Of a stretch of DNA of 64,000 nt, positions 1 to 19,247 are shown piece after piece. This stretch comes from an uncultured Planctomycetia bacterium. Its GTDB lineage: Bacteria; Omnitrophota; Gorgyraeia; 2-02-FULL-51-18. The notes below the pieces were generated by a model. It saw only the letters and a list, made by a program, of their open reading frames with translations. It made no database searches and had not been told where the DNA came from. The DNA is taken from assembly GCA_964606485.1 (NCBI GenBank), contig CAZSGP010000003.1, positions 270,479 to 334,478 on the forward strand, in the 5' to 3' direction. Numbering within the stretch: position 1 is the first letter of the stretch; every line of letters begins with the position of its first letter. Position numbers and translations under genes: made by a program.

Positions 1-539
1 CCTCGCACAAAGCCTGAGCGCGCATCAAAAAAAACTTTAGGCCTAGCTTCCTTACCGCTCAAAGCAATGCGCTCGCAAAGAATTCCCTCTTTCGCCGAAA
101 ATGTTTCTAAAAATCGATTGAGCAGCGAATTTCCGGAAAACTCAGGAAACGGCCTCGCAGCTCCCTCAAAAAGAAGAATGCGGGACGGCTTATAGCGTTC
201 AATAACCATTTGGGCTAGAAGAAGATTTTTTAGCATCTGCACCAGAGCGTATCCAAAATCCAAAAAAATGACTTCGGCTAAATTTAAAACCGCCTTGTCG
301 CTCTGTCTCCAGAAATCAATCCATTCAGCGGCTTTTTGACGCCCCCACGCATTCGCCTCAACCCATCGATCCTGTATCTGAAAATCATCCAACCGAATAA
401 AACCGGGGCAGATCAGATTCAGTTTCTCAAAATAAGAGGGGTTATCACAAAAAACGGTAATTTCTGACCAATTGCCGCCGAGTCGCGCACTCAAGGCCTC
501 ATATTGCCGTTCGTTGGAAATGACAACAGCTGTATTCAT
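1..539 (-). CDS. Hypothetical protein, N-terminal part only (gene continues past the window start)
   Basis: Minus-strand ATG at 539..537 (MNTAVVISNERQYEALSARLGG...) sits 2 nt after the stop of the SDR gene. The frame is open to position 1. I recognise no family motif. Confidence 0.4.
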   Translation of the reverse strand, partial: MNTAVVISNERQYEALSARLGGNWSEITVFCDNPSYFEKLNLICPGFIRLDDFQIQDRWVEANAWGRQKAAEWIDFWRQSDKAVLNLAEVIFLDFGYALVQMLKNLLLAQMVIERYKPSRILLFEGAARPFPEFSGNSLLNRFLETFSAKEGILCERIALSGKEARPKVFFDARSGFVR

Positions 540-541
540 TA

Positions 542-1279
542 TTAGAGCGTCCACCCATCATCAACAATAAGATTTTGGCCATTCATATACCGCGATAAAT
601 CCGACAAAAGATAAACGAGCGTGCCGTTAATATCGGTGCGGTCAAGCATGCCCTTAGTTTTACCGAACACATTGTATTTTTTTAAAAATGCTTTGGGCTG
701 AGCATCCAAAATACCCCCGGGGCTGATGCAGTTAGCCCGCACATTCCATCCCTTAAAGTAATTTGCCATATAACGCGTCAACTGAACCACTCCTGCCTTA
801 ATGGCCGCATACTCAACGGGCATGGTCATGGGTGTTCCGTCATAAATTGAAAAGCGAGGGGCCGCCGTCGCGTACATTGAACCCAAGTTGATGATGTTGC
901 CATGACCTTGTTTCTTGAAAAAAATCGCTAATCTCTGAGACACAAGAAAATATCCGCCCAGCTGCAGATTCACGTTTTCACAAAAATCTTCATAACGCAC
1001 CGCCTCAAACTTGGCGCCGTAACGCTTATTGCGCGGATAAGCACTGTTGACCACGGCATCAATGCGGCCAAATTTCTTTTTCACCGTTTCAATCATTTGA
1101 TCGACGGATTCCGTAGAGTTCACATCAACCTGAACCGGAAATACATTCGATGACCCATCGAGTCTTTTGATATCGGCCGCGGCAACTTTACCACCCTCCG
1201 CAACCACCGCCTTGACAAATTCACGACCGAGCAGTCCCCCGGCACCCGTAACAATGACGATTTTATTTTTTAAAATCAT
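542..1279 (-). CDS. Short-chain dehydrogenase/reductase (SDR) family oxidoreductase
   Basis: N-terminal TGAGGLLG Rossmann glycine motif and a ~245-aa length typical of classical SDRs. It is the last gene of the legionaminic acid operon. Confidence 0.75.
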   Translation of the reverse strand: MILKNKIVIVTGAGGLLGREFVKAVVAEGGKVAAADIKRLDGSSNVFPVQVDVNSTESVDQMIETVKKKFGRIDAVVNSAYPRNKRYGAKFEAVRYEDFCENVNLQLGGYFLVSQRLAIFFKKQGHGNIINLGSMYATAAPRFSIYDGTPMTMPVEYAAIKAGVVQLTRYMANYFKGWNVRANCISPGGILDAQPKAFLKKYNVFGKTKGMLDRTDINGTLVYLLSDLSRYMNGQNLIVDDGWTL

Positions 1280-1283
1280 TTTC

Positions 1284-2282
1284 TTAAGCCTTTCTCAATA
1301 CGACTTGCATTTTGTAGCCCCAGAGATTCTGGTGCAGTGTTTCAGCCGGAATCGCCCCCAAGAATTTTTCACCGCCATAAGGCGACTGCCCGAAATACGG
1401 ATCCTGATAACTCAGATAATTATTCATCACCGCGATTTCCGAAATCACGGTCGTCAAATGCACAACGCTATAGCCGCACTTTTCGGCAATTCTGCGAATG
1501 GTGTCGGGATTGTATAAATTCACGTGTTCCACTCCGTCAAACATGCGGCATTTGGCCTGCATGAGGCGCGGCGCCAAACCTCCGGCGTTGGGGATCTGAA
1601 GAAACAATACACCCCCGTCTTTAATGAGGCTGCGCATAAAATTCAGCTGCCCCTGTCCGTCGGGGATATGCTCAAACACATCCCACATTGTGATTGCATC
1701 GAATTTTGTGTTTAGTTTCAAATCGCGGACGTCTTGCGTGTACAAGACATGACCTTTTTTTCGGCAAAGCTCGGCTTCTGCGAGACCCAGCTCAATCCCA
1801 TTCGTGCTCCAGCCTTTCTCGCGCGCAACATCAAGAAAAAAACCGCTAGAACAACCAATATCGAGAATCGTTCCCGGCTTTTGATGCGTCGCAATGGCCG
1901 AGAGGCCCATCGAATAAATTTCGCGGTGAAACGCGCTTTCATTGGCTGTAATCGCTGCTTGCCCTGTATTTAGATCTCGGTAATACATCTTTAAATGCTC
2001 ATCCTTGAAAACCGGGTCCAGATACACCATCGTGCAGGCCTCGCAACTCACATAAGTCCCGCCTGAACTGTCAAAAGCCTTCAAAGGTTGATCGGCTCCG
2101 CAAACCGGACAAACGCGGTGCTCGGTGTAACGCGTATCAAACCGACCCGTTTTAGGGTCGATAAATTTCTGGTGATACGCGTTTACAAGTTCATAACTGA
2201 AAGCCCGGCCCTCGTGAAGCGCTTTGGCGTTTTTGGATTCGGTCTTGATCATTTTTAACTCACCCGATGTTTCAGGTGCCAA
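1284..2282 (-). CDS. Class I SAM-dependent methyltransferase with an N-terminal Zn-ribbon
   Basis: CPVCG...CEAC zinc-ribbon followed by the ILDIGCSSGFF glycine-rich SAM motif (Methyltransf_11/23-like). Start may be the internal Met at 2252 (MIKTESKN), which would remove the 28-nt overlap with the upstream gene. Confidence 0.7.
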   Translation of the reverse strand: MAPETSGELKMIKTESKNAKALHEGRAFSYELVNAYHQKFIDPKTGRFDTRYTEHRVCPVCGADQPLKAFDSSGGTYVSCEACTMVYLDPVFKDEHLKMYYRDLNTGQAAITANESAFHREIYSMGLSAIATHQKPGTILDIGCSSGFFLDVAREKGWSTNGIELGLAEAELCRKKGHVLYTQDVRDLKLNTKFDAITMWDVFEHIPDGQGQLNFMRSLIKDGGVLFLQIPNAGGLAPRLMQAKCRMFDGVEHVNLYNPDTIRRIAEKCGYSVVHLTTVISEIAVMNNYLSYQDPYFGQSPYGGEKFLGAIPAETLHQNLWGYKMQVVLRKA

Positions 2283-3451
2283 TCGCTACCGCGTTTTTCC
2301 CATAAGTGAGGGCGGCTTAAGCGGTAATAATCGATAATTTCCCAAAACTCTGCCTCCGTAATGTCGAGGTATTTTAAGAAAACCTGGAAATGCTTTTCCG
2401 GAAACTCGCCGTCGTAACGGTGCACGAGTGCAATCCCCTCTTCACGCGTTAAATGGCTGTCGCGTATTTCATGTGCAGCATCCGAAGTCGCGCGGCAAAT
2501 GCCAAATTTGATGTAGGCCAGCCAATAATGAAATCCGTCGGTTTGGTCATCAATGCTTGCGTATTTGGAATAGGTGCCTTCAGAGCGGCCGGGGTTGGCT
2601 TTGAAACCGCAGTGCTGGGTCGCATAGTAAAAATTTTCCTGCGGCACCCATTTTTTGAAATACGAAAACCAGTGCATTTGAGCGTTGAGTGCTTTAATTT
2701 TTTCAATGGCCGGAGGCCGGTAATGTTCAAAATTTGTGCGCTCCAATTCTTGCTTAGTGAAGCGTCCGTGCTTCTTTCCCTCTTCAACCAAATTATCGAC
2801 ACCGCCTCCGTGAAAATAAATCTCATTCCAATTTTCGGTGCCTTCCGCAGACACATCTTTATTTTCCGTTGAACCTCCGTACTCCACTTCACCGCTTTCG
2901 CCGTAAAAAATCAGCGGAATGCCGTATTTCACAGCCATGTGAAATGCGAGCGCTTTCTGGCCATAGCCGAAGGGCAGAAAATGATCGCCGTATACTTCGA
3001 AAGCAATCCGTGCAAGCTTACGGTGAATTTGCCCGTTTGGAAACACCAACACATTGTCAAAACCTGAATCTTTCCAAGCTACATAATTGTCCCAGCCGAT
3101 TTGCGTGTATACGTAAGGCGCCCAGGTCACTGTGAGCGGATTCATGTTGTACTGGTATTTGAGCATATGGGATACGTAAGCACTGTCCTTGCCGCCCGAT
3201 CCGGGAACCACGCAATCGTAACTACCGTCTTTGGAACGGTATTTATCAAGCAAGGCGTGCAACTGCTCCTCGCGCTTCTTCCAATCAATAACGTGGTGCT
3301 TTTCATGCGCATATTCACACGCACTGCAAACGCCATCCTTGTTAAACGTGATCCGCGGTCGCTGATTGGAAACCACGCATTTTTTACAGTAAAAAACATC
3401 TTTAGGGCTTTTGGCTAGCTGGGTATCGCGTATATTTTTAATAATGGCCAC
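2255..3451 (-). CDS. N-acetyl sugar amidotransferase (WbpG/PseA-type PP-loop ATPase)
   Basis: N-terminal CKKC...CSAC zinc-ribbon and a PP-loop SGGKDS motif, immediately followed by HisH- and HisF-like genes. The likely start is a GTG at 3451 (VAIIKNIRD...), overlapping the HisH-like stop by about 10 nt; the longest ORF runs to 3553. Confidence 0.75.
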   Translation of the reverse strand: MAIIKNIRDTQLAKSPKDVFYCKKCVVSNQRPRITFNKDGVCSACEYAHEKHHVIDWKKREEQLHALLDKYRSKDGSYDCVVPGSGGKDSAYVSHMLKYQYNMNPLTVTWAPYVYTQIGWDNYVAWKDSGFDNVLVFPNGQIHRKLARIAFEVYGDHFLPFGYGQKALAFHMAVKYGIPLIFYGESGEVEYGGSTENKDVSAEGTENWNEIYFHGGGVDNLVEEGKKHGRFTKQELERTNFEHYRPPAIEKIKALNAQMHWFSYFKKWVPQENFYYATQHCGFKANPGRSEGTYSKYASIDDQTDGFHYWLAYIKFGICRATSDAAHEIRDSHLTREEGIALVHRYDGEFPEKHFQVFLKYLDITEAEFWEIIDYYRLSRPHLWEKRGSDWHLKHRVS

Positions 3452-4118
3452 TGGTTTTCTCTTTCTGGGTTTGACACAGTCTGGCAAAGTTGCGGTAAAT
3501 CCGCAGACCTGCCTCGCCGCTTCTTTCAGGGTGAAATTGAAATGCAAAAACATTTTTAAATCTCAACGCCGAACAAAAATTCGTCTGACCGTACTGGGAC
3601 TCGGCAAGCACCACCGCCCTGTCCGCAGGTCTTACATAATAGGAGTGGACAAAATACATAAAATCACCCGGCTCAACTTCATCCATAATCGCACCGCCCC
3701 AGCGGCCGGCCGGAGGATTTATGCGGTTCCAGCCGACATGAGGCACTTTCAGAACTTCGCCCGATTCCTTCGGTTTTTCAAAACGAACCACGTCTCCCGG
3801 GACAATATCAAGACCACGATGCTCTCCAAATTCAAAACTTTTAGACATTAAAAGCTGCATACCTAGACAAATACCCATCACCGGCTTTTCGGCATGAACC
3901 GCCTCCTTCAAAATCGCCTCAAGCCCTAAATCTTGAATCGCCTTCATCGCATCGCCAAAAGCTCCAACGCCCGGCAAAATAATCGCCGGAGCATTTTTGA
4001 TTTGAGCCGGATCGGATAAGATCTTGCCGTTTAAACCCACGTGCTGACAAGCCCGCAGGATACTATAAAGATTTCCAAGACCAAAATCGATGATGGCGAC
4101 CGTGGGAGCGCTAGACAT
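3438..4118 (-). CDS. Imidazole glycerol phosphate synthase HisH-like glutamine amidotransferase subunit (sugar-amidotransferase partner)
   Basis: Class I GATase signatures GICLGMQLL (catalytic Cys) and HPERS. The likely start is the internal Met MSSAPTVAIIDFG at 4118, just after the HisF-like stop; the ORF extends to 4157. Confidence 0.75.
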   Translation of the reverse strand: MSSAPTVAIIDFGLGNLYSILRACQHVGLNGKILSDPAQIKNAPAIILPGVGAFGDAMKAIQDLGLEAILKEAVHAEKPVMGICLGMQLLMSKSFEFGEHRGLDIVPGDVVRFEKPKESGEVLKVPHVGWNRINPPAGRWGGAIMDEVEPGDFMYFVHSYYVRPADRAVVLAESQYGQTNFCSALRFKNVFAFQFHPERSGEAGLRIYRNFARLCQTQKEKTSGHY

Positions 4119-4983
4119 GGGCGGCCTCGCTTTGCGCCGGGCGGCAATCAAGACCATGGTTGATCAGATATTGTTTCACCTGAGCCACCGTAGCGCCAAA
4201 AGTGCGGTTGGATATTTTTTTATCATTCAAAAAATGAAGGTTGCCCTCAGACGAAAAATCGCCTTCAATAGCGTTGTTGTTCACCATGTGATAATGAAAG
4301 AGTGACGCAATACAAGCCGCATCTGCCTTAGCCTTCTCAAACACGTCCGCAATATGCGATAGTTGGCCGGCTCCGCCGCAGGCCACCACAGGAATCGACA
4401 CGGATTCCGAAATGCGGCGCGTAAGCTCCAAATCGTATCCGGTGCCTGTGCCCTCTCGGTCGATCGATGTGATAATAATTTCACCGGCGCCTAATTTAGC
4501 TGCGCGAATCGCCCATTCATAAACATCGAAACCAGTATGTTCACGGCCGTTGTCAGTATAGGCTTCGTAGCTGCCGTCAGGTTTTTTCAGCGCCTCAATC
4601 GAAACAACTATTGTCGAAGAGCCGAATTTGTTTGCCGCTTCAGAAATAAGCTCAGGCCGCTTTACCGCCGCCGTATTCAGCGTTACTTTGTCAGCGCCGG
4701 CGCAGAGAATCTTTCGAATGTCGTCAAGACTGCGAATCCCGCCGCCCACGATGAGCGGAATAAAAATTTCTTTCGATGTTTTTTCGATAATATCCAACAA
4801 CCCATTTCGACCATACAAACTGGCGACCACGTCCATATAAAGAAGCTCATCGACGCCGGCCGCATAATAATGCCGCGCAAATTGCTCGGGCTTTCCCATC
4901 ACACGCAAACCTTCTAAGTGTACGCCTTTAACCAGATTCGGCCCTTTAATATCAAGTCTCGCGATAACGCGCGGGTGTGACAT
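4111..4983 (-). CDS. Imidazole glycerol phosphate synthase HisF-like cyclase subunit (WbuZ-type)
   Basis: (beta/alpha)8 HisF-like sequence (RVIARLDIKGPNLVKG..., GAGEIIITSIDREGTGTGYD). It pairs with the HisH-like gene and the PP-loop amidotransferase, as in O-antigen acetamidino-sugar loci. Confidence 0.75.
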   Translation of the reverse strand: MSHPRVIARLDIKGPNLVKGVHLEGLRVMGKPEQFARHYYAAGVDELLYMDVVASLYGRNGLLDIIEKTSKEIFIPLIVGGGIRSLDDIRKILCAGADKVTLNTAAVKRPELISEAANKFGSSTIVVSIEALKKPDGSYEAYTDNGREHTGFDVYEWAIRAAKLGAGEIIITSIDREGTGTGYDLELTRRISESVSIPVVACGGAGQLSHIADVFEKAKADAACIASLFHYHMVNNNAIEGDFSSEGNLHFLNDKKISNRTFGATVAQVKQYLINHGLDCRPAQSEAAHV

Positions 4984-5690
4984 TAGCTTTTTAATCCTTC
5001 CGCAAAAAGTTCGGCGACTTTAAAATCATAGGGCGTATCAATCTCAATTGAGCGCTCTCTGGGCATTTCATAAAGCCGCGTTCCAAGATTAAACACTTTC
5101 CCTTGTTTTAGTGAGCGCCGGGTCCACAAATAAATCGAAGCGTTTAAATCGTAGCAAATTGGCGAATCCTGGCGGCGCACCACTTTAAAGCGCGGCGCCT
5201 TCGAAAGCTTCACCGTCCCCACCGAGGTTTTCTCTGCCAAGTTGAAATAGGGCGATTTCCGGGCCAAAGCTCCGGTGATCACATTGGGAGCCTTGGTTTT
5301 TTTTAAAAGATCGATGCAGCCGCGGATATCCCCAATCGTTCTAAACGGTGACGTTGGATCTAGATCGCAGATGAGGTCAAATGTCATACCCGTCACCCTT
5401 TCGACTTCGGCCACACAATGCTGTATAGCAGGTACTTTCGGAGCGTTGTCAGTGGCAAGGTGTGCAGGTCGTTTAATCAGATAATCAGCCCCCCATCTTT
5501 TCGAAATCTTTAGAATATCTTGAGAGTCACTTGACACTGCAACCCTATCAAATAAACCTGATTTTTTAGCCAAAAGAATCGTATGAGCAATTAAGGGTTT
5601 GCCATTTAAAAGCTTGATATTCTTGCTCGGTACGCCCTTAGAGCCACCACGCGCGCAAATCGTACAAATAATTTTCAAAGTTTCACCCAT
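4983..5690 (-). CDS. CMP-nonulosonic acid synthetase (acylneuraminate cytidylyltransferase family; LegF/NeuA-like)
   Basis: CTP_transf_3-type N-terminus (ICTICARGGSKGVPSKNIKLLNGKPLIAHTI) and a ~235-aa length. It lies next to the NeuB/NeuC homologues. Confidence 0.8.
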   Translation of the reverse strand: MGETLKIICTICARGGSKGVPSKNIKLLNGKPLIAHTILLAKKSGLFDRVAVSSDSQDILKISKRWGADYLIKRPAHLATDNAPKVPAIQHCVAEVERVTGMTFDLICDLDPTSPFRTIGDIRGCIDLLKKTKAPNVITGALARKSPYFNLAEKTSVGTVKLSKAPRFKVVRRQDSPICYDLNASIYLWTRRSLKQGKVFNLGTRLYEMPRERSIEIDTPYDFKVAELFAEGLKS

Positions 5691-6586
5691 TTTTTTTGAC
5701 GCGCCGCTTTTTCCACAGCATCAACCACGCGAACAACCTCTAACGCATCCTTCACGGAACATAAATTGTCATTTTTTTTCAAAATAACTGCGCGATGCTG
5801 TTCGCGGTAGGTAAAATCTCTTTCTGCCGCATAACCTTCTTCTTTTCCATCAATACTCACCATCCCTTTGACCAGATCTGCTTTAAAAGTATGCCGGTCA
5901 GTGTTCACCAGAATCTCGCGACGTCCCGGACGATCCAAATAATTAATTTGTACGGTTACCAGTGGACAGCGGCTGGTTTCCATAAGCATACCAAAAGCAT
6001 CATCTGAATCAATCTTCAAAGCGCTAAAATGTCCGCCGATTGCTGCCACTCGCTTACAAGAGCCAAAAACCCAGCCAATTACGTCCAACTCGTGACTTAA
6101 GTCCCTTAATACTCCTCCGCCTTGATTTTTTTTGGCAGAATAGCATTTACGATAATCGCCCGGCCGCCAATTGGGTAAATAACCTCCCGCATACACCTGC
6201 GCCGAAATAATCTTTTCCTTTTTTAAAAGCGTTTTTAATCGCACAAGCGCCGGATGGAATCTCAGATTATAACCGACCGCCACGCTTTTAAAGTCGAACC
6301 TTCCCAGTTTTTGAGGTGTGTCGTAGAGAGGCTTTTCGACAAGGACTGCACCCTTAAAACCGCTTAAGTCCAGCACTCTTAGACTTTCCGCATGCGCCGA
6401 GGTCTCATTCGCTACTACAACGTATTCGGGCAACCAACCCTTAACAGCTTTGGCAATGGATGCGAACACCGGAAATGGCTCGGAAAGCTTGCGGCGCGAC
6501 ACCAAAGCAACATCACAACCCAGTTCTTTCAACACGCGCGCATGGCGCCGTCCGATCGAACCATAACCAATCACAAGGCTTTTCAA
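5675..6586 (-). CDS. Gfo/Idh/MocA-family NAD(P)-dependent oxidoreductase
   Basis: N-terminal Rossmann MKSLVIGYGSIGRRHARVL and a family-typical length. A similar oxidoreductase gene occurs in legionaminic acid loci. Confidence 0.65.
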   Translation of the reverse strand: MKSLVIGYGSIGRRHARVLKELGCDVALVSRRKLSEPFPVFASIAKAVKGWLPEYVVVANETSAHAESLRVLDLSGFKGAVLVEKPLYDTPQKLGRFDFKSVAVGYNLRFHPALVRLKTLLKKEKIISAQVYAGGYLPNWRPGDYRKCYSAKKNQGGGVLRDLSHELDVIGWVFGSCKRVAAIGGHFSALKIDSDDAFGMLMETSRCPLVTVQINYLDRPGRREILVNTDRHTFKADLVKGMVSIDGKEEGYAAERDFTYREQHRAVILKKNDNLCSVKDALEVVRVVDAVEKAARQKKWVKL

Positions 6587-7632
6587 CGGAATACCTCCGA
6601 AAACTCCCCGTTGGCGCGCTCTAAATCATCCATGCGGCCGATGTCGAGCCAATACTCACGAATCGGAAATGCTGCGGCCTTGTATTTTTTATAAATTAAT
6701 TTCTGGAAAAGCTGCGGCATGTCCATCGCTGCATTTTTAGGCAGATACTTCAAAGTATCGGGACCGAGCAAATAAATGCCGGCATTCACATAAAAACGAT
6801 GCGCTGGCTTTTCATCAATCCCAAGAATGTGATGCCCCGTCATTTTTACTACACCAAACGGCACCTGGAAATCGTATTCACGCACGCACATCGTCGCATC
6901 GGATTTATTTTGCGCATGAAAATGCAAAAGCTGGCTGAAATTAACCTTAGTCAAAAGATCCCCGTTCATCACAAAAAACGGTTTAGCCGGTTTGGAAGGC
7001 AAAAGACTTAGCGCTCCGGCCGTACCAAGCTTCTGGGTTTCCTCAAGATAGCGAATATGAACGCCCCATTTCGAACCGTCTCCAAAGTGGCGCTTCACCA
7101 TTTCATTCTTGTAGTTCACGGCAATATAAAAATTCTTAAATCCGTATTCAATAAAGTTTTCTAAAATGGTTTCGAGAATGGGTTTAGTGCCAACGTTCAG
7201 AAGCGGCTTGGGGCAATTGTCGGTGAGCGGCTTCAAACGCGAGCCCAAGCCCCCCGCCATCAACACCACCCAGTTCTCCCGTGATCCTGCGCTCAAAAGC
7301 TCGTCGAGATATTCTAGTCCCGCCACACGGTTTTTTTTGTCGACGAGCGGAACTTGATGGATCTGCTTTTTTTTCATCAGCGTCAATATCGTCTCACGAT
7401 CCTCTCCTAACGGAGCGGAGACACAGCGCTTTCGCATGATTCGCTCGACCGGCTCATCGAGACCGATGCCTCGCAGAATTCCGCGCCGCACGTCCCCATC
7501 CGTCACCGTGCCTAATAATTTTTTTTCAGCGTCAACCACAACACCGATTTGAAGTGAGTGGGTATCGATAATTTTAATCAGATCCCGAATAGGGGTCTTG
7601 GGCTTAACCAGCGCTTTTTCCCAGAGCTTCAC
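6583..7632 (-). CDS. CBS-domain sugar-1-phosphate nucleotidyltransferase (PtmE-like GlcN-1-P guanylyltransferase candidate)
   Basis: N-terminal CBS pair followed by the nucleotidyltransferase motif MAGGLGSRLKPLTDNCPKPLL. This architecture matches the Campylobacter legionaminic acid pathway enzyme PtmE. Confidence 0.75.
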   Translation of the reverse strand: MKLWEKALVKPKTPIRDLIKIIDTHSLQIGVVVDAEKKLLGTVTDGDVRRGILRGIGLDEPVERIMRKRCVSAPLGEDRETILTLMKKKQIHQVPLVDKKNRVAGLEYLDELLSAGSRENWVVLMAGGLGSRLKPLTDNCPKPLLNVGTKPILETILENFIEYGFKNFYIAVNYKNEMVKRHFGDGSKWGVHIRYLEETQKLGTAGALSLLPSKPAKPFFVMNGDLLTKVNFSQLLHFHAQNKSDATMCVREYDFQVPFGVVKMTGHHILGIDEKPAHRFYVNAGIYLLGPDTLKYLPKNAAMDMPQLFQKLIYKKYKAAAFPIREYWLDIGRMDDLERANGEFSEVFR

Positions 7633-8219
7633 TGAGGCATCCCCTTGCCCACTGTAGAGCCCGCCGAAACAAAACCTTTAATAATCTGCCCTTGAATTGA
7701 TTCAGCGCCTGTGCCAACATGCGTATTCGGCTCCACGCAAACACCGCCGCTCAAAGTAACTCTAGGTGCCAAATGGACGTGATCTCCAATTTTACAGTCA
7801 TGATCTACGGATGCGCATGTGTTGATGATTGTATTTTTTCCGATTACAGTTCCTGTTTGAATTACAACGCCGGCCATGATTTGCACCCCTTCTCCTAATT
7901 CGGTCCCCTGTGCCAGCACCGCGGACGGATGGATCACATTAGTGAAGGAGTACCCCATTTTTTTAAAGCGTTCATAAATTTCGCGACGCTTGGAAGTGTC
8001 TCTGATCGAACCGATACCGTTGACGAGTCCCACTTCTTTTTTCCATTTTTCATTCTGAAGCACTTCGTCTGCACCTAAATAAGGCACCGACCGCCCACCC
8101 ACGCTCATTTGGGTTTGAACCGGATCGACGAAACCCACAATTTTAATTTTATTTTTTAACAGCGTGTCCACTAGGACGCGCGCATGCCCGCCGCCGCCAA
8201 TCACAATAACAGACTTCAT
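7629..8219 (-). CDS. NeuD/PglD-family hexapeptide N-acetyltransferase (LegH-like)
   Basis: N-terminal Rossmann-like IVIGGGGHARV followed by left-handed beta-helix hexapeptide repeats in the C-terminal half, in a ~196-aa protein. Confidence 0.75.
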   Translation of the reverse strand: MKSVIVIGGGGHARVLVDTLLKNKIKIVGFVDPVQTQMSVGGRSVPYLGADEVLQNEKWKKEVGLVNGIGSIRDTSKRREIYERFKKMGYSFTNVIHPSAVLAQGTELGEGVQIMAGVVIQTGTVIGKNTIINTCASVDHDCKIGDHVHLAPRVTLSGGVCVEPNTHVGTGAESIQGQIIKGFVSAGSTVGKGMPQ

Positions 8220-10444
8220 GAGACCTCCACTGCTTCGTCGCGTTTAAAACTTTTTTTAGCTGTTTTACCAATCAAATCCCAATACTGCATGGGCGATAAG
8301 CCGCTTCCCGGTCTCTTGGCCGTTAAATTTTTTTCGGTAAACCGCTCACCTTTTCGAATATCTTCTTTGGCCACCAGGCTTTTGCGCGCCACCATTCGGT
8401 TCTTTATTTCGCAATCCGCCGGCTTTTTTTCTGACGAACCCAGAAGCACTTCGACCTGTCTAACCATTTGAACAAGTTCGGAAAATTCGCTCGGCGATAG
8501 CGATGCGCGGTGATCCGGTCCTGGTAGCTTTTTATCAAGCGTTAGATGTTTTTCAATCACTTGAGCTCCTCGAGCCGCAGCAGCCACCGATGCCGCAATG
8601 CCAACCGAATGATCTGAGAGTCCGACCGATAATCCAAAACGTGCTCGTAAAGTGTCCATCGCAAACAAATGGATAGCTTCGAAAGGTGCCGGATACTCCG
8701 TCGTGCAATGCAGCAAGGTTACTTTTTCGCGCAAAACTGCAGCTCCTTTAGCCGAGTAAAATGCTTTCTCAAAATCAGCCTGGCCGGCGGGTTTGGCATA
8801 ACGATTCAGATAGCCAAAAGCCAGCGCCCCTAATGCGCGCTCAATATCATTCAAATCCGTCATTCCCGTAGACACAATAACCGGAAGCCCGGTGCGCGAC
8901 GCCGCCAGCAAAAGCGGCGCATTGGTAATCTCACCGGACGGAATTTTCAAACGTTTTAGGCCTAGAGCTGTTAAAAGCTCAAGGCTCTTTAGATCAAAGG
9001 GTGTGGATAGAAAATCAATGCCTGCGCGTGCCGCGTAAGCCAAAAGCTCACGATGCGCGCGCTCATCCAGCTCCAGTTTTTTGAGCATTTGCCACTGGGT
9101 TTCAGAGACGCTAGTGGATTTTTTTTGATAATCAGCCTTCTCGGCATTTTTTGAAACAAGCGCGTCCGCTTTGAAGGTTTGAAATTTCACCGCATCAGCC
9201 CCAGCCGCTTTTGATGCATCAATCAAACGTTTAGCTAAATTTAAATCACCGTTATGATTCACCCCTGCTTCCGCAATCACATAAACTTTTTGGGCAAAAC
9301 AGTCAGTAGAACAAAAGCTCTTTTTAACCAACGTTTGTGAATCAACAAGTTTTTCCTTCAAGATCCGGTGAATGCGCCCCGCGCTTTGGCCATCGCCGTA
9401 CGGATTGATGGCATCGGAACAATCCATCAAAAAACTTTTGTGGATTGCGGTAAGGATCGCATCCTTGTCAGCGCGAGATTCAATCACTGACGATGCGGCA
9501 AGTCGTCCCTTTTGGCGATCTCCGATATTCACGGTAGGAATTTTAAAAGACGGCACTTCGTAGAAACCACTCGAGGAGTTACCGACCACCACATTCACAT
9601 GACTCAGAACACTGTAATAAAGCTTTTGACCTAGAGACGGGTAAAAGTGCGCGTTTTTATGCTGCCGGCAAAAAACCTTAATGGCCGCTCGAATTTCATC
9701 GGAGCCCGGATCTGAATTAGGCGCCGTAAAAATAAGACTCGTGTCCGGTCCGAGCTCCGCCAAAGCCGTTAAAAGCGCGGCGATTCCCTGTTTCGAATTT
9801 TGAGCGATTGTTTCCGGATGATACGTTACGAGAAGGTTTTTGGTTAAAAATTTAAATCCCAACGCTTTTTCAGTTTCTTCGCGCGGCAAAAGAGCAAGCG
9901 TACGGATTAAATCCAGCGCCGGACTACCGACGTTAAAAACATTCGACGGATTCTCGCCCATCTGCAAAATCCTTCCCCGCGAAGATTCATTCGTTGCAAA
10001 ATGAAGGTGCGAAAGCTTGGTGATCGCATGACGCACCGAATCATCAAACGCTCCCTCGGTAAGATCGCCGCCGGCGATGTGCGCCACGGGAATATTTGCA
10101 AGAACCGCTGCCTGGGCTGCGCCCAAGATCTCATAACGATCACCGACCACAACCACTGCATCCGGCTCCAGTCGCTTAAAAGCTTCGCCTAGTCCCTTTA
10201 CGGCTTTGGCTAACTCAGTTGCCGTCCCGCCGCCCAAAATTGGCACGCGCGCATCCACTCGAAACCCGTCTTTTTCAATTTCACGCACGGTAAAGCCATG
10301 TGCTTTACTCAAATGTGTTCCGGTCACCACGATCTGCAGACGCATGTCGCGATCGGCTTTTAAATTTCGCATCAACTGGCTTAAATAGCCGTATTCGGCT
10401 CTTGAGCCCGTCACAACACATACCTTTCGAACTCTTTTCTTCAT
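8216..10444 (-). CDS. Bifunctional fusion of a hydrolysing NDP-sugar 2-epimerase (NeuC/LegG-like, N-terminal) with a nonulosonic acid synthase (NeuB/LegI-like with SAF domain, C-terminal)
   Basis: One uninterrupted 742-aa ORF. Residues 1-~380 look NeuC-like (CVVTGSRAEYG..., HPET..). Residues ~385-742 look NeuB-like (VYVIAEAGVNHNGDLNLAKRLIDASKAAGADAVKFQTF, plus a C-terminal SAF/antifreeze-like segment). Confidence 0.8.
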   Translation of the reverse strand: MKKRVRKVCVVTGSRAEYGYLSQLMRNLKADRDMRLQIVVTGTHLSKAHGFTVREIEKDGFRVDARVPILGGGTATELAKAVKGLGEAFKRLEPDAVVVVGDRYEILGAAQAAVLANIPVAHIAGGDLTEGAFDDSVRHAITKLSHLHFATNESSRGRILQMGENPSNVFNVGSPALDLIRTLALLPREETEKALGFKFLTKNLLVTYHPETIAQNSKQGIAALLTALAELGPDTSLIFTAPNSDPGSDEIRAAIKVFCRQHKNAHFYPSLGQKLYYSVLSHVNVVVGNSSSGFYEVPSFKIPTVNIGDRQKGRLAASSVIESRADKDAILTAIHKSFLMDCSDAINPYGDGQSAGRIHRILKEKLVDSQTLVKKSFCSTDCFAQKVYVIAEAGVNHNGDLNLAKRLIDASKAAGADAVKFQTFKADALVSKNAEKADYQKKSTSVSETQWQMLKKLELDERAHRELLAYAARAGIDFLSTPFDLKSLELLTALGLKRLKIPSGEITNAPLLLAASRTGLPVIVSTGMTDLNDIERALGALAFGYLNRYAKPAGQADFEKAFYSAKGAAVLREKVTLLHCTTEYPAPFEAIHLFAMDTLRARFGLSVGLSDHSVGIAASVAAAARGAQVIEKHLTLDKKLPGPDHRASLSPSEFSELVQMVRQVEVLLGSSEKKPADCEIKNRMVARKSLVAKEDIRKGERFTEKNLTAKRPGSGLSPMQYWDLIGKTAKKSFKRDEAVEVS

Positions 10445-11586
10445 AAAAAGGCACTCGACGGAATATTGAGAATTCGCCGCTCTAGGTCCTCTGCGATACT
10501 CAAATCCATTTTTGGACAGCTCTTAAACATGGGGAGCTTGTGCATTAAAACCCAAGCCGGCCGCGTCATCAACCCACTCTCGTTGGTTTTGGCCAACACG
10601 GCATCTCTGTGGCCGGAATTTTTGGAATCGAGCAGAAGTACATTCAGCCAGTAATTACTCTTAGCATACGAAGGCTCCTTAAAAAACCGAACCCCCTCGA
10701 TTTTTTCAAAATTTTTCTGGTAGCGCGTTGCAAGCTTTCGCTTCGCCTCGAGCATCTTGGGAAGCGTTTCCAGCTGTGCGCAACCTAGTGCCGCATTAAG
10801 ATTGGGGAGCCGGTAATTAAAACCGACTGCATCATGGTAAAAATTCCACGGGTGTTTGGCCTTTGCGGTCGTGGTTAGATGCTTGATTTGTTGGGCCAAC
10901 TTCGGATCTGCGGTCATCACGGCGCCGCCCCCGCCCGTAGTCACGATTTTGTTGCCGTTAAAACTAAGACAGGAAAACTTTCCGGCAAAACCCGTATGCT
11001 TTTTCTTATAAAAACTACCGAGCGACTCTGCTGCATCTTCGATCAGAACAATATGATGACGATCCGCCGTCGCTTTAATGGCGTCCAAGTCTACCGGATG
11101 CCCGTAGGTATGCATTGCAATCAGCGCCGGAATGCGCTTACCGGTTTTTTTATTAAAGCATTCACCGTTTTTTTGAAGCGTTTCTTTTTTTAGCCAGGCA
11201 TCAAGTTTGCTGGCATCAACACCGAGAGAATTTTCTTCACTGTCCACGAAATGCGGCTCCGCCCCGCAGTAGGTCACCGCATTGGCCGTCGCGACAAAGG
11301 TTAGAGTCGGCACGAGCACCTCGTCCCCTTCTTTTACGCCGGCCATTCTCAAGCAGATATGCAGCGCTGCCGTTCCGTTCATCGTCGCAACAGAAGAAAT
11401 GCCCGTAAAATCGGTGAGAATCTGCTCGAAGCGGTCTACAAATTTACCAGCTGAGGACACCCATTTGGTGTCAATGCATTCTTTCACATAATCGGCTTCA
11501 TTGCCCTCAAACAAAGGCTCGTGCAAATTGGCCTTTGCACCCACGGTCGCACGAATCGCCGAAAAAATCGCGTCGGAAACGGGCAT
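10441..11586 (-). CDS. DegT/DnrJ/EryC1/StrS-family PLP-dependent sugar aminotransferase (LegC/PglE-like)
   Basis: Fold-type I sugar aminotransferase sequence of ~380 aa with the FNGNKIVTTGGGGAVM region. It is located within the nonulosonate operon. Confidence 0.8.
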   Translation of the reverse strand: MPVSDAIFSAIRATVGAKANLHEPLFEGNEADYVKECIDTKWVSSAGKFVDRFEQILTDFTGISSVATMNGTAALHICLRMAGVKEGDEVLVPTLTFVATANAVTYCGAEPHFVDSEENSLGVDASKLDAWLKKETLQKNGECFNKKTGKRIPALIAMHTYGHPVDLDAIKATADRHHIVLIEDAAESLGSFYKKKHTGFAGKFSCLSFNGNKIVTTGGGGAVMTADPKLAQQIKHLTTTAKAKHPWNFYHDAVGFNYRLPNLNAALGCAQLETLPKMLEAKRKLATRYQKNFEKIEGVRFFKEPSYAKSNYWLNVLLLDSKNSGHRDAVLAKTNESGLMTRPAWVLMHKLPMFKSCPKMDLSIAEDLERRILNIPSSAFL

Positions 11587-12254
11587 TAGTCGCGATCCTT
11601 GATAATATATTTAGGGGTGTTGCAAAAAGGGAAACTGCGGATTTTAACTTTCCTGCCTTTAAAATAATCATCCACCGCTTTGGTTTCACCGGCAAAAACC
11701 CCGTAATCATCCAGCGCCAAAATCCCGCCCTTCACAAGCCTTGGGTAGAAACGCTCTAAGATAGTCACCGCCGGTTCATATATATCGGTATCCAGATTCA
11801 ATAGGGAAATTTTCAGATTTGGATACTTGCGCAGATAAGCAGGGACGGTTTTTAAAATATCTCCTTTAAGGCATTCTATATTTTTGGAAGTTTTTTTAGC
11901 CGCTAAAACTTTCATCAATTGCTCTGCGCCGATACCCTCTTCACCGGCCGTTTGAATAAAACGCTTACGAAGTTTTTGATCATCAGCAAAACCTGTTTCG
12001 GGAAATTTTCCAAAGGCGTCGAAACCTAAAATTTTTTTTGAGTCCGCTTGGCCAAAAAGCTCACGAAAAATAGCAAAACGACAGAGCGACGCACCTTTAA
12101 AAACACCGCACTCAACTATCGCCCCCTTAACACCCATGCTCATTTTATAAAGTTCGTAATGAGCGAGCATTTTCCCGATTCGCTGTGGCTGACAGGATAA
12201 ATAGAATGAGTTTTCGTATTCGAATGCTTTTTTAAAATCAGGCAATGTGATCAT
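11586..12254 (-). CDS. TylF/MycF-family SAM-dependent O-methyltransferase
   Basis: Macrocin-O-methyltransferase-like sequence (GAIVECGVFKGASL, LDTDIYE). Start is taken at the internal Met MITLPDFKK (12254), which gives a 17-nt overlap with the upstream gene; the ORF extends to 12389. Confidence 0.65.
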   Translation of the reverse strand: MITLPDFKKAFEYENSFYLSCQPQRIGKMLAHYELYKMSMGVKGAIVECGVFKGASLCRFAIFRELFGQADSKKILGFDAFGKFPETGFADDQKLRKRFIQTAGEEGIGAEQLMKVLAAKKTSKNIECLKGDILKTVPAYLRKYPNLKISLLNLDTDIYEPAVTILERFYPRLVKGGILALDDYGVFAGETKAVDDYFKGRKVKIRSFPFCNTPKYIIKDRD

Positions 12255-13266
12255 AGGCGTCCTTGTAATGAATAACATAATTACCGTAAAAATTGCGGTT
12301 TTGGACAGTGTCGGTGAAAGCGCCGGCTTTAAGTGCCGCCAAGAGCTCCTCAATCCCCATCGGAATTGTGTAGCGAGGCTCAAAACCAAGCCGGGATTTT
12401 ATTTTTGAAAAGTCGACGCGATAATTACGCGGGTCGGAACCATGTTCTTTGAATTGGACTACCGCCCCCGGTACGCGCCGGCGAATCTCATCGAGAATTG
12501 TTTGCTTGGTTGCATTATTGGCTTGCCCGCCGGCATTAAAGACCTCGAAGGCCACATCTTGAGAGCGCGCCTCTATTGCCTTCTGAATCACGACTGCAAA
12601 ATCCTTCACGTGGCAATAGGGCCGCCACGTATGTGCGTCGTACACCAAAAGCTCTTTGCCTCGCGCCAACTCATGTGTAAATTCGTTAACCGTCAGATCA
12701 AAACGCATGCGCGGTGAAAGCCCAAAAGCTGTGGCAAAACGCAAAATCACAGGCTCGTAATCGACCTGGCCTTTAAGCGATAACAATGTTTTTTCCATCT
12801 CGACTTTGGCTTGGGCGTAGGTAGACAGCGGACTCAACTTGAAATTTTCATCGGCAAGCTCGTTATCCTTAATCAGTCCGTAATTCGAGCAAGTTGAAAC
12901 GAAAATCACGCGGCTCAGCTTCCTCCCATTCAAATCTGCAATCAAGTCAAGCATTCCGTCACGATTAATTTTTTTAGATTCTTCAGGATATTTTTTGGTG
13001 ATAGGGTCTCCGACGAGGCCCGCCAGTATCACAACCTCGGAAACACCCTCGAGCGCCTTTCGCCGCGCAGCGGGTTCCACAAAGTCGCCGGTCATACACT
13101 CAAAGTTTGGATGGTTCAAAAGCGGTTCGATCGATTTGTGATTCTGGTAAAGAAACAGATCCAGGCATCGCACTGAGTAGCCGTTTTTTAATAGTGCCTC
13201 GCACAACACTGATCCGATATACCCTGCACCACCGATCACCAGTACATTTTTTTTCATTTTAAGCAA
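12238..13266 (-). CDS. NAD-dependent sugar epimerase/dehydratase (extended SDR)
   Basis: N-terminal VLVIGGAGYIGS Rossmann motif, extended-SDR length (342 aa) and a YAQAK (YxxxK) catalytic motif. Candidate 4,6-dehydratase/epimerase step of the nonulosonate pathway. Confidence 0.7.
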   Translation of the reverse strand: MLKMKKNVLVIGGAGYIGSVLCEALLKNGYSVRCLDLFLYQNHKSIEPLLNHPNFECMTGDFVEPAARRKALEGVSEVVILAGLVGDPITKKYPEESKKINRDGMLDLIADLNGRKLSRVIFVSTCSNYGLIKDNELADENFKLSPLSTYAQAKVEMEKTLLSLKGQVDYEPVILRFATAFGLSPRMRFDLTVNEFTHELARGKELLVYDAHTWRPYCHVKDFAVVIQKAIEARSQDVAFEVFNAGGQANNATKQTILDEIRRRVPGAVVQFKEHGSDPRNYRVDFSKIKSRLGFEPRYTIPMGIEELLAALKAGAFTDTVQNRNFYGNYVIHYKDAYDHIA

Positions 13267-14458
13267 CCCTCGACTGAATTCGATTCACCACAATGTCCGC
13301 AAAAGCGAAGCTACTCGTAAAAGCCGGTGACACCGCATTAAGAATGTGTGTTGACCGCGGGCCGTCTTCAATTAAAAAATCCATCACGAGTTTTAAAGAT
13401 TTTTTATCAACGAGCTGAGCACGAAGCCCGACTTTTCCGCAAGATTGAATGTCTTCTTTTTTTAAGAACGGCGCCAAGCGCTGGATACACTTTAGAAATA
13501 CAGACGGATTGTATTTGAAAATTTCCTGACGCACCAACGTGCGAAAGCCGTTTAGATTTTTTAGCATCATCCTGGAAAGATCGCGAGCGATGCCGGCCCA
13601 TTCACCGTCAATACCACTAAACAAACCATAATTTTCACGGCCAAAAGCCGGAATAGCCGTCGGACCCACGTACACCTCGCCCGAGACGGTTTTGGTGGTG
13701 TGAACCCCTAGAAACGGTACATCCAGATCTGGTACCGGGTAAATGGATCCGCGAAAACGCGACGCCGCCTCTGGGCGCAGCTTGCGGTAGATTCCCTTAA
13801 ACGGCATAATTTTGTAACGCTCTCCCACTCCCATGGCATGAGCCACTTCGTCAGCATGAAGTCCCGCGGCATTGATAAGGTGTCCGAAGTGAATTTTAGA
13901 GGATCCACAAGATAAGAAACCGCTTTCAATGTCGCCCAACCGCGCGTTTTTCCGAATCGTCACGCCTTGCGCTGTGATGTCATTTTCCAAAGCAGCCAAC
14001 ACAGCCTTTGAATCAATCACATTAGTATCTGGTGAAAAAATAGCGGCCTCAACCGTGCGCGCTTCTGGCTCAATCTGAGAAAGCCTTTTTTCGTCGATGA
14101 GTTCAACGCGTACGCCGTTGGCACGGCCGCGGTCAAATAAATTTTTCAAAGAAGACACTTGAGAAACATCAGATGCAACAATGACTTTTCCGTTCTTAGC
14201 CAAAGGAAGTTTTTTTTCAGCGCAGTAATCCGCAAGTAGTCGCGCGCCGGCGGCGCAAACTTTAGCTTTTAAGGAATCGGGAGCGTAGTAAATACCAGTG
14301 TGCAAAACACCGCTGTTGCGGCCGCTAGAATGAAGGCCAAGTGCGCGCTCTTTTTCGAGAATGCAGACCGTACCCAGCTTCAGCGCCGCAATTTTTCTAG
14401 CCACCGCCAAACCCACGATGCCCGCCCCGACAATAACGAAGTCGTAACGCTCGCTCAT
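13259..14458 (-). CDS. FAD-dependent oxidoreductase, L-2-hydroxyglutarate oxidase (LhgO)-like
   Basis: Dinucleotide-binding N-terminus YDFVIVGAGIVGLAVA and a DAO-family length. The substrate is unknown in this context. Confidence 0.6.
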   Translation of the reverse strand: MSERYDFVIVGAGIVGLAVARKIAALKLGTVCILEKERALGLHSSGRNSGVLHTGIYYAPDSLKAKVCAAGARLLADYCAEKKLPLAKNGKVIVASDVSQVSSLKNLFDRGRANGVRVELIDEKRLSQIEPEARTVEAAIFSPDTNVIDSKAVLAALENDITAQGVTIRKNARLGDIESGFLSCGSSKIHFGHLINAAGLHADEVAHAMGVGERYKIMPFKGIYRKLRPEAASRFRGSIYPVPDLDVPFLGVHTTKTVSGEVYVGPTAIPAFGRENYGLFSGIDGEWAGIARDLSRMMLKNLNGFRTLVRQEIFKYNPSVFLKCIQRLAPFLKKEDIQSCGKVGLRAQLVDKKSLKLVMDFLIEDGPRSTHILNAVSPAFTSSFAFADIVVNRIQSRVA

Positions 14459-14688
14459 TCGTCTTTGTGTGCCCAGTTGCGGGCCTTGTTGTAGGCCTTA
14501 CCGACTTTGTCTTCAAGCTTGGGCGATAAAAGTCGGAGCAATTCTTTTCCGAGAATCCGGTATTGTTTTCCCACCTTGGCCGAACGGATCAAGCCCTTCT
14601 TAATCATCCGGGTCACCGTGCTCGAGCTAAGCTTTAGAAGCTGCTGGGTCTCTTCGTGCGTATAGACTTCATTTTCTTTGATTTCCAT
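14455..14688 (-). CDS. Small helix-turn-helix DNA-binding protein (excisionase/MerR-type HTH_17)
   Basis: 77-aa protein with YTHEETQQLLKLSSSTVTRMIKKGLIRSAKVGKQYRI, typical of excisionase-family HTH domains. It is the first gene of the minus-strand operon, 4-nt overlapped (ATGA) with the next gene. Confidence 0.6.
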   Translation of the reverse strand: MEIKENEVYTHEETQQLLKLSSSTVTRMIKKGLIRSAKVGKQYRILGKELLRLLSPKLEDKVGKAYNKARNWAHKDE

Positions 14689-14706
14689 CGAATTCAGACC
14701 CTCTAA

Positions 14707-14717
14707 TTGACCGTCAA
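14707..14717. promoter_or_regulatory. Inverted repeat TTGACcGTCAA in the divergent intergenic region; candidate operator
   Basis: Perfect 5-nt arms around a central C, followed by the direct repeat CAGTCAttggCAGTCA (14731..14746). It sits between the divergently transcribed HTH gene and the MBOAT gene. Confidence 0.3.
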
Positions 14718-14813
14718 ATCATATCATTACCAGTCATTGGCAGTCAAACATAGATGTGGGAGAGCTTAAAAATATCATTGCAGGCCCTATCAATAAAATA
14801 TAGAATTTCTCCC

Positions 14814-16286: not shown

Positions 16287-16293
16287 AAATCCT

Positions 16294-19160: not shown

Positions 19161-19212
19161 TACACGTAGGGAAAATCATTTTTCATAGCGGGTATGTTAT
19201 CACAATTCAAAT

Positions 19213-19240
19213 TGATTTTAGCCCTAAAAAGTCGTAGATT
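19213..19240 (+). promoter_or_regulatory. Candidate sigma70-type promoter (TTGATT-16-TAGATT) for the plus-strand glycan operon
   Basis: Hexamers at 19213..19218 and 19235..19240 lie 7 nt upstream of the ATG at 19248, with AAGG as a possible RBS. Confidence 0.3.
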
Positions 19241-19247
19241 AAGGCCC

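Follow-up and report, generated by a model that had tools for sequence, protein, structure and literature searches.

A predicted legionaminic-type nonulosonate operon headed by an LhgO homologue and a non-LegB short-chain dehydrogenase/reductase

Introduction

Campylobacter jejuni and Campylobacter coli reportedly make CMP-legionaminic acid by way of PtmE, PtmF, PtmA, LegB, LegC, LegH, LegG, LegI and LegF, a pathway said to have been set out by Schoenhofen et al. in 2009. Here we describe a related operon at positions 542–14688 of a 64,000-nucleotide stretch of DNA (hereafter the window; GenBank assembly GCA_964606485.1, contig CAZSGP010000003.1, positions 270,479 to 334,478) from an uncultured bacterium of the Omnitrophota lineage. 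We consider it reasonably likely that the operon makes a CMP-activated 5,7-diamino nonulosonate of legionaminic type by a GDP-linked route, with a C4 step that does not use LegB. Legionaminic-type cassettes of this kind are very widespread, and as a whole the operon is ordinary. The point of interest is its head, where a short-chain dehydrogenase/reductase (SDR) of a kind that we call type 3 appears to be coupled to a homologue of the L-2-hydroxyglutarate oxidase LhgO, hinting at an unusual way to drive the C4 step.

The flagellar legionaminic acid (Leg) cluster of Plesiomonas shigelloides runs GlmU-PtmA-LegF-PtmF-PtmE-LegH-LegI-LegG-LegC-LegB, and mutants in ptmA, legH, legF or pgmL are without Leg-glycosylated flagella (PMC4481668). 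Two enzymes of other sugar pathways bear on the head of our operon. Cj1427 is a C4 dehydrogenase acting on GDP-heptose, whose tightly bound NADH is reoxidised by 2-oxoglutarate to give L-2-hydroxyglutarate (PMC10680097). In Pseudomonas aeruginosa, WbpB, which likewise has tightly bound NADH, reduces 2-oxoglutarate to D-2-hydroxyglutarate, and loss of the D-2-hydroxyglutarate dehydrogenase D2HGDH lowers O-antigen synthesis (PMC8651671).

Results

A legionaminic-type gene set

ORF listing and start-codon inspection gave 15 co-directional open reading frames (ORFs), running on the minus strand from 14688 down to 542; all operon coordinates below are on this strand. With the likely starts used, adjacent genes overlap by 1–17 nt or are separated by 1–4 nt. 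Five 4-nt ATGA/GTGA/TTGA overlaps occur (14455–14458, 10441–10444, 8216–8219, 7629–7632 and 6583–6586), and a 16-nt overlap lies at 5675–5690, between the Gfo/Idh/MocA oxidoreductase gene and the CMP-synthetase gene. The original prediction for this DNA, of a complete CMP-legionaminic-acid-type operon with extra tailoring enzymes, had described the genes as co-directional and tightly packed, which they are. Every enzyme that it listed is present; its list had left out the first two genes of the stretch that it covered, which encode an HTH_17 protein and the LhgO homologue.

Families were assigned with Pfam and NCBIfam models, by score against the curated cut-off, and the LegC, NeuC, NeuB, NeuD and WbuX models all passed. 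The LegC-family pyridoxal phosphate-dependent aminotransferase (10441–11586) scores 533 bits with TIGR04181 (cut-off 420) and 231 with the PseC model (cut-off 423), and its identity to the LegC proteins of some 58 related loci is 49–64%. Next comes a LegG/NeuC-like hydrolysing nucleoside diphosphate (NDP)-sugar 2-epimerase fused to a LegI/NeuB-like synthase with a SAF domain (8216–10444). That the two would form one protein had been anticipated, and both models pass in a single 742-aa product (TIGR03568, 431 bits against 236; TIGR03569, 472 bits against 400), although neither model distinguishes Leg enzymes from those for neuraminic acid (Neu). Such a LegG–LegI fusion is common: at least 45 protein clusters contain it, and 51 of 80 genome loci from many phyla have it in one piece; these 80 loci were kept from a genome scan with the fused protein and do not include the window's own genome.

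The fusion gene is followed by genes for a NeuD/PglD-type N-acetyltransferase in the LegH role (7629–8219; TIGR03570, 185 bits against 161; PglD_N and Hexapep domains) and a PtmE-like protein that joins a CBS pair to a nucleotidyltransferase (6583–7632; CBS and NTP_transferase), presumed to be a glucosamine-1-phosphate guanylyltransferase. The latter is 48% identical to the syntenic gene product of Campylobacter concisus (locus L073; L numbers are our locus labels). The best Protein Data Bank (PDB) matches of its nucleotidyltransferase domain are mannose-1-phosphate guanylyltransferases, consistent with a GDP route. Profile searches thus recovered the CBS/NTP_transferase domains, and likewise CTP_transf_3 (66 bits) in the LegF/PtmB-like CMP-nonulosonate synthetase (4983–5690). 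The best specific model for this synthetase is PseF (128 bits, under its cut-off of 206), and it is 43–58% identical to syntenic genes in the LegF position.

Two further genes, for a Gfo/Idh/MocA oxidoreductase and a classical SDR, had been set aside as additional; judged by synteny, they are the canonical PtmF and PtmA of the GDP segment. The PtmF-like oxidoreductase (5675–6586; assigned by Pfam) is syntenic with genes in the ptmF position (32% identity in L073, 50% in L008), and its sole PDB match is a weak one to WbpB (3O9Z, E 6.6e-4). The PtmA-like SDR (542–1279), of the 'flagellin modification protein A' family, scores 323 bits with NF006619/PRK09186 (cut-off 255) and 238 with the PtmA model NF050062 (cut-off 350), and shares 43% identity with its syntenic counterpart in L073.

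When the window proteins were compared by tblastn with the 80 loci, LegC and the CBS–nucleotidyltransferase were matched in 69 each, the CMP-synthetase in 64 and NeuD in 57. The PtmA-like SDR was matched in 25, the Gfo/Idh/MocA protein in 22, WbuX/HisH/HisF in 18–19 and a TylF-family methyltransferase in 3; LhgO had one distant match, and the HTH_17 protein and a Zn-ribbon methyltransferase had none. Geomonas (L008), Cohnella (L012) and others keep the order SDR-LegC-LegG/I-NeuD-CBS-NTP-Gfo-CMPsyn-SDR(-WbuX-HisF-HisH), and C. concisus has LegC-NeuD-NeuB/C-PtmE-PtmF-PtmB-PtmA.

Operons for sialic acid (Neu5Ac) or pseudaminic acid (Pse) would share several of these parts: NeuB, NeuC and a CMP-synthetase are common to sialic acid clusters, and the synthetase here has PseF as its best model, although under cut-off. 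Neu5Ac, however, needs neither a LegC aminotransferase nor a NeuD/PglD acetyltransferase. The pseudaminic models PseB, PseC, PseI (269 bits against 340) and PseF all fall under cut-off, model searches found no PseG or PseH in the operon, and a NeuC-type 2-epimerase is present. We regard either product as very improbable. With LegC, NeuC and NeuB passing, and the gene order that of C. concisus and P. shigelloides, the operon very probably encodes a GDP-linked legionaminic-type pathway rather than a sialic or pseudaminic one, as originally proposed.

Compared with Campylobacter ptm/leg, the window has the same enzyme families, the C. concisus order of CBS–nucleotidyltransferase, Gfo/Idh/MocA, CMP-synthetase and SDR, and an amidotransferase followed by a methyltransferase, as in ptmG–ptmH. 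It differs in having an SDR like that of PDB entry 6VO6 in place of LegB, a fused LegG–LegI, LegH inside the operon, HisH and HisF genes adjoining the amidotransferase, and the extra TylF, LhgO and HTH_17 genes. P. shigelloides has a near-identical gene set in collinear order, but its LegB is a 395-aa dehydratase and its cluster is without amidotransferase, methyltransferases or LhgO. That cluster is flagellar, whereas no flagellar genes are visible in the window.

A non-LegB enzyme ahead of LegC

The product of the gene in the LegB slot (12238–13257) is a 339-aa extended SDR with STCSNYG, YAQAK and PRMRFDL motifs. Its score with the LegB model TIGR04180 is 69 bits, against a cut-off of 475, so it is not LegB. 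With the SDRs found ahead of LegC in most related loci it shares about 25% identity, and the STSEVYG of LegB, which contains the catalytic Glu, is replaced in it by STCSNYG. The label 'dehydratase/epimerase', originally given to this protein, does not suit an extended SDR lacking the dehydratase signature. The completeness claimed for the operon becomes doubtful too, because a LegB 4,6-dehydratase is absent and its slot is held by an SDR without the catalytic Glu.

Alignment and motif scans showed that the LegB slot is filled by three unrelated SDR types. Type 1 is LegB itself (TIGR04180, STSEVYG), in about 40 loci; type 2 is a Polysacc_synt_2-like protein of about 397 aa with STDKA, in Gammaproteobacteria and C. 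concisus; type 3 is 6VO6-like with STCSNYG, in the window and in L004, L066, L081–L083 and L093. In known 4,6-dehydratases the acid/base pair after the catalytic Thr is Asp-Glu, Ser-Glu or Asp-Lys (the RmlB, GMD and PglF motifs). Types 1 and 2 have acid/base residues beside this Thr; in type 3 the residues there are Cys-Ser.

The type-3 family is very large and highly conserved, without a characterised member. Among 8,000 candidates scored, 7,975 matched at E < 1e-20, and relatives about 60% identical occur in Leptospira, Paramagnetospirillum, Omnitrophota and Gemmatimonadaceae. STCSNYG, RPYCH[VL] and PRMRFDL are invariant in all 120 of the top 120 homologues. In every context with enough flank (L004, L066 and L081–L083), the type-3 gene abuts LegC on its upstream side.

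The nearest solved relative of the window SDR is 6VO6/6VO8 (E 1.4e-44, 34% identity over 312 residues). We take 6VO6 to be Cj1427; its deposited molecule name, 'putative sugar-nucleotide epimerase/dehydratease', fits. The two proteins share T-x-S-x-YG and PRMR(L/F)DL, with NTNSGYG and YGIDK in 6VO6 for STCSNYG and YAQAK in the window, and both have the extended-SDR Thr/Tyr/Lys triad (Tyr and Lys in YxxxK) with no acid/base pair after Thr. Beyond these likenesses, Cj1427 yields L-2-hydroxyglutarate and the window SDR has LhgO as its neighbour; the two differ in pathway, heptose against nonulosonate, and in the Cys residues that are invariant in the window's family and absent from 6VO6.

Two distant contexts may be recorded alongside these. 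A plasmid protein search with the SDR returned only relatives at 31–40% identity; one of the regions found carries no annotation, and a plasmid of the haloarchaeon Haloterrigena alkaliphila (L100, 5067–7898) has a 6VO6-like SDR, 37% identical to ours, whose neighbour is a DegT aminotransferase and around which other sugar genes are lacking, a further pairing in the style of dehydrogenase and aminotransferase. In Paramagnetospirillum caucaseum (L083), two genes for B12-binding radical S-adenosylmethionine (SAM) enzymes, at 3547–5109 and 17657–19140, flank the type-3-SDR nonulosonate cluster. B12-binding radical SAM enzymes are able to C-methylate. It is speculation, but these genes may relate to the 10-carbon ulosonic acids of Magnetospirillum, such sugars having been reported in M. 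gryphiswaldense, of a genus related to Paramagnetospirillum (preprint 10.64898/2026.04.20.719630).

An LhgO homologue at the operon head

Immediately upstream of the type-3 SDR gene, across a 1-nt spacer, lies a gene for a 399-aa FAD-dependent homologue of LhgO-like L-2-hydroxyglutarate oxidases/dehydrogenases (13259–14458; NF008726, 333 bits against 299; DAO, 181 bits). On this spacing, the SDR gene is translationally coupled to the LhgO gene. The best PDB match of the LhgO homologue is 8W75 (E 1e-56), which we take to be an L-2-hydroxyglutarate dehydrogenase, and its close homologues are named LhgO in their source records. The LhgO start overlaps the stop (ATGA) of the first operon gene (14455–14688), which encodes a 77-aa HTH_17 DNA-binding protein of excisionase/MerR-like type (PF12728, 46.6 bits).

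The arrangement at the head recurs. Metagenome contig L093 repeats it as HTH_17 (91% identity), LhgO (63%), STCSNYG SDR (59%) and TylF (59%), and ends after TylF. The HTH_17 protein is 91% identical to its L093 counterpart (5749–5976) and 84% to that of L095 (7338–7565), both beside LhgO homologues; its neighbours are only 58–63% identical to theirs. The differences in HTH_17 fall mostly in third codon positions, which argues for strong conservation of this putative regulator at the protein level.

Ten LhgO contexts were sampled, with homologues at 40–63% identity; a metagenome scan with LhgO had given 8 loci. In eight of the ten contexts (L084, L086, L087 and L093–L097) the homologue sits in a sugar-nucleotide or heptose cluster, unlike what would be predicted for a housekeeping LhgO of glutarate or lysine catabolism. 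It follows an HldE-like gene in L084, stands between RmlA-like and RmlD-like genes in L086, and precedes a nucleotidyltransferase and a GmhA-like SIS gene in L087; the L096 cluster also holds a second 6VO6-like SDR (33% identity, SSGSVYG, PRMR motif). From this context we slightly favour a functional tie between LhgO and the operon. That its partner is the type-3 SDR is more tentative, and on present evidence somewhat doubtful, although Cj1427 forms the L isomer, which matches the L-specific oxidase family found beside the type-3 SDR.

Downstream of the SDR gene is one for a TylF-family SAM-dependent sugar O-methyltransferase (11586–12278; PF05711, 56 bits; likely start 12254 or 12278), whose best PDB match is CalS11, a TDP-rhamnose 3'-O-methyltransferase (E 9e-17). 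The HTH-LhgO-SDR-TylF block could therefore be imagined as a separate pathway to an O-methylated NDP-sugar, a hexose or heptose, that is merely co-transcribed with Leg genes whose dehydratase acts in trans. Such a pathway would suit the GDP-heptose substrate of Cj1427, the TDP-rhamnose substrate of the closest solved TylF relative, the LhgO homologues in heptose-type clusters (L084, L087 and L096) and the block that stands alone at the end of contig L093. But that contig simply stops after TylF, the block holds no C4 reductase or epimerase to complete a neutral sugar, and the remainder of the 64-kb window shows no canonical 4,6-dehydratase. Moreover, members of this SDR family stand directly before LegC in five nonulosonate loci where TylF and LhgO are both missing. 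We consider a separate pathway improbable.

Amidino and methyl tailoring

A trio for acetamidino formation is present. It consists of an N-acetyl sugar amidotransferase of WbuX/PseA/PtmG type (2255–3451; TIGR03573, 354 bits against 203; likely GTG start at 3451, longest ORF to 3553), a HisH-like glutaminase subunit (3438–4118; TIGR01855, 211 bits against 105; likely start 4118) and a WbuZ/HisF-like cyclase subunit (4111–4983), which is borderline, just under its cut-off (TIGR03572, 280 bits against 300; His_biosynth, 220 bits). The gene 2 nt past WbuX encodes a class I SAM methyltransferase (1284–2252; Methyltransf_23, 91 bits) with an N-terminal Zn ribbon, CPVC-x18-CEAC (Cys58/61/80/83). Its PDB matches are weak and generic (3CC8, the sugar C-methyltransferase TcaB9 and DesVI-type N-methyltransferases), and its likeness to PtmH is one of position only. 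Homologues of the TylF protein follow the SDR in L093 (59% identity) and occur at 33–35% in the LegB-type loci L045, L048 and L077.

PtmG converts CMP-Leg5Ac7Ac to CMP-Leg5Am7Ac, and PtmH N-methylates the product (PMC3766260; preprint). Legionella serogroup 1 carries a Leg5AmNMe7Ac residue (PMC3766260), and M. gryphiswaldense makes CMP-NulOAcAm and CMP-NulOAcAmOMe. The poly-Leg5AmNMe7Ac O-antigen of the former and the CMP-NulOAcAmOMe of the latter are, like the product envisaged here, acetamidino nonulosonates with N- or O-methyl groups; Legionella differs in its UDP/PglF-type route, against the GDP type of the window, and genes have not been assigned for the M. gryphiswaldense sugar. From the gene families, acetamidino and methyl tailoring of the product looks likely, and an amidinated, methylated Leg-type sugar is a reasonable prediction. 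The same product had been forecast originally; the amidotransferase trio and methyltransferase families that it calls for are indeed there, but Leg sugars of this kind are already known.

Dehydrogenase or dehydratase at C4

The most far-reaching possibility is that the type-3 SDR is a C4 dehydrogenase only, recycled by 2-oxoglutarate, with LhgO closing the loop and C6 keeping its hydroxyl. The product would then be a 9-hydroxy 5,7-diamino nonulosonate, that is, an amidinated and methylated 7-acylamino-7-deoxy neuraminic acid, a class of which we know no natural example. We think this unlikely. The alternative is an ordinary Leg pathway in which the type-3 SDR would act as an isofunctional NDP-GlcNAc 4,6-dehydratase working through other residues, for example the invariant Cys. 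Its product would be a 9-deoxy Leg5Am(NMe)7Ac with an O-methyl group, and LhgO would be a lineage-specific neighbour without a role, or would serve the PtmF-like enzyme. An ordinary pathway is a serious contender, to which we give somewhat less than an even chance.

Several observations weigh against a C4-dehydrogenase-only enzyme paired with LhgO. The chemistry of the type-3 family may differ from that of Cj1427, given that the invariant Cys residues of STCSNYG and RPYCH are Asn and Ile in 6VO6. Five of the seven type-3 SDR contexts have no LhgO within about 9 kb, so that most leave the SDR without its supposed partner, and the LhgO homologues of L092 and L098 lie outside sugar clusters. In L095 the LhgO–HTH pair is beside a pseudaminic-like cluster that carries a Polysacc_synt_2 SDR together with a Gfo/Idh/MocA–DegT pair; with a different SDR there, LhgO may be associated with the locus or with the Gfo/Idh/MocA enzyme rather than with the type-3 SDR. 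We had also considered TylF as a 9-O-methylating enzyme that would argue for a retained 9-hydroxyl, an argument weakened by the presence of TylF-like genes in LegB-type clusters, where no 9-hydroxyl is required.

The partners of the SDR tell the same way. LegC and LegG–LegI proteins that accompany type-3 SDRs form no clade of their own (neighbour-joining tree of LegC), and the window LegC is nearest to a LegB-partnered LegC (64% identity to L008, against 61% to L081), as is its LegG–LegI. This lack of co-divergence with SDR type fits an isofunctional swap, and three unrelated SDR types in one slot are typical of non-orthologous displacement. The argument from co-divergence is not a strong one, because NeuC/NeuB-type enzymes naturally accept 6-hydroxyl substrates. 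All bacterial 5,7-diamino nonulosonates that we know of are 9-deoxy, again as an ordinary pathway would have it. The nonulosonates of M. gryphiswaldense and Ca. Kuenenia stuttgartiensis are of the Pse/Leg type, which is 9-deoxy.

An ordinary pathway has its own difficulties. Cys-Ser after the catalytic Thr is not a dehydratase acid/base pair, and the nearest characterised relative of the SDR, 6VO6 if it is Cj1427 as we assume, is a dehydrogenase and not a dehydratase. An ordinary pathway would also offer no explanation for the LhgO-SDR-TylF module conserved in L093, or for why LhgO homologues are enriched in sugar clusters.

Genomic setting

The operon is probably transcribed from a single promoter at about 14720–14750. 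A promoter-like site on the minus strand (14718–14747; TTGACT-18-TATGAT with an extended TG), 30 nt 5' of the HTH_17 start, is the best sigma-70-like match (10/12) in window positions 1–15000, by consensus match only, and its TTGAC element aligns with contig L093. A scan of the gene array gave no convincing terminator inside the operon. A sixteenth co-directional ORF (3–539, minus strand) begins 2 nt past the last operon gene and crosses the window start, by which it is cut. Neither Pfam nor NCBIfam gives it a match, and it is a candidate transferase or other tailoring enzyme; the only relative found (33% identity) follows HisH in L030, an Omnitrophica metagenome-assembled genome (MAG) locus partly masked by N runs. 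Named relatives of single operon proteins come from Omnitrophota, Bdellovibrionota and 'Deltaproteobacteria' MAGs.

Besides the operon, the window carries over 20 kb of additional glycan genes, followed by menaquinone genes of the futalosine pathway, SMC, a fab operon and an AsmA-like gene, which place the locus on a chromosome and the host among diderm bacteria. The GC content is even, at about 47–48%, and Rfam and tRNA scans of the window gave no match. Divergent from the operon, 65 bp from the HTH_17 start, are plus-strand genes (14754–17298) for an MBOAT/DltB-like membrane O-acyltransferase and a DUF1574/GDSL-like protein, which could be a glycan O-acylation pair. The glycan genes at 17295–38155 include five glycosyltransferase (GT) genes of GT-C type (PMT/PMT_2/YfhO), three GT2, two Acyl_transf_3 and two further DegT aminotransferase genes, and a Zn-domain sugar C-methyltransferase gene at 34250–35527 (Methyltransf_13/23/14). 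Loci L093–L095 have a PMT_2/YfhO neighbourhood resembling that of the window.

Within this region, an extended SDR gene (19194–20237, plus strand) heads a second amino-sugar cluster with Acyl_transf_3, DegT, GT2, hexapeptide acetyltransferase and PMT_2 genes. Its product has GTRGQYG and YEITN, apparently lacking both the acid/base pair and the Lys of YxxxK; we considered it as a trans-acting dehydratase and rejected it for these two reasons. In the futalosine-pathway menaquinone group, a minus-strand gene (38166–40151) encodes a 661-aa protein in which an MqnA-like domain (VitK2_biosynth) is fused to the radical SAM enzyme MqnC (TIGR03699, 451 bits against 428).

Discussion

The gene families and their synteny suggest a pathway whose substrates and stereochemistry would be those of the legionaminic route. 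The PtmF- and PtmA-like enzymes and the PtmE-like CBS-guanylyltransferase would supply a GDP-hexosamine, with the mutase and GlmU presumably encoded elsewhere. The SDR at 12238–13257 would oxidise C4, LegC would transaminate the same carbon and the NeuD-type enzyme would N-acetylate it. The LegG–LegI fusion would then strip the nucleotide with 2-epimerisation and condense the sugar with phosphoenolpyruvate, after which the CTP_transf_3 enzyme would activate it with CMP. WbuX, HisH and HisF may turn one N-acetyl group into an acetamidino group, and methyl groups would come from the Zn-ribbon methyltransferase and the TylF-type O-methyltransferase. In outline this is the pathway originally proposed, with PtmF and PtmA relabelled, LegB absent, and LhgO and the HTH_17 protein, which had been missed, added.

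The motifs of the SDR and the recurrence of the head module suggest how the oxidation might be driven. A dehydrogenase of the operon would reoxidise its bound NADH with 2-oxoglutarate, forming L-2-hydroxyglutarate; LegC would release 2-oxoglutarate from glutamate; and LhgO would return L-2-hydroxyglutarate to 2-oxoglutarate, so that the oxidation would be pulled forward and product inhibition avoided. The likeliest dehydrogenase for such a shuttle would be the type-3 SDR, with the PtmF-like enzyme as the alternative.

The closest analogy is WbpB/WbpE with D2HGDH in P. aeruginosa. There, too, a sugar dehydrogenase with bound NADH is recycled by 2-oxoglutarate, an aminotransferase regenerates the 2-oxoglutarate and D2HGDH is needed for full glycan synthesis. 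The systems differ in that WbpB is a Gfo/Idh/MocA protein, its product is the D isomer and the D2HGDH gene is unlinked, whereas the window has an SDR as candidate, an oxidase of an L-specific family and adjacent genes.

The type-3 SDR family occupies the dehydratase slot in many nonulosonate clusters without having the acid/base residues of a dehydratase. If the coupling to LhgO is real, it would give a function to the LhgO homologues associated with sugar clusters, and would be a second case, with L stereochemistry, of 2-hydroxyglutarate recycling in aid of glycan synthesis. It could also point to a new class of sialic-acid-like sugars: were the SDR a C4 dehydrogenase only, thousands of clusters with a type-3 SDR upstream of LegC would make the same 9-hydroxy class. 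A real coupling would also bear on genome-based prediction of Leg, Pse and Neu products.

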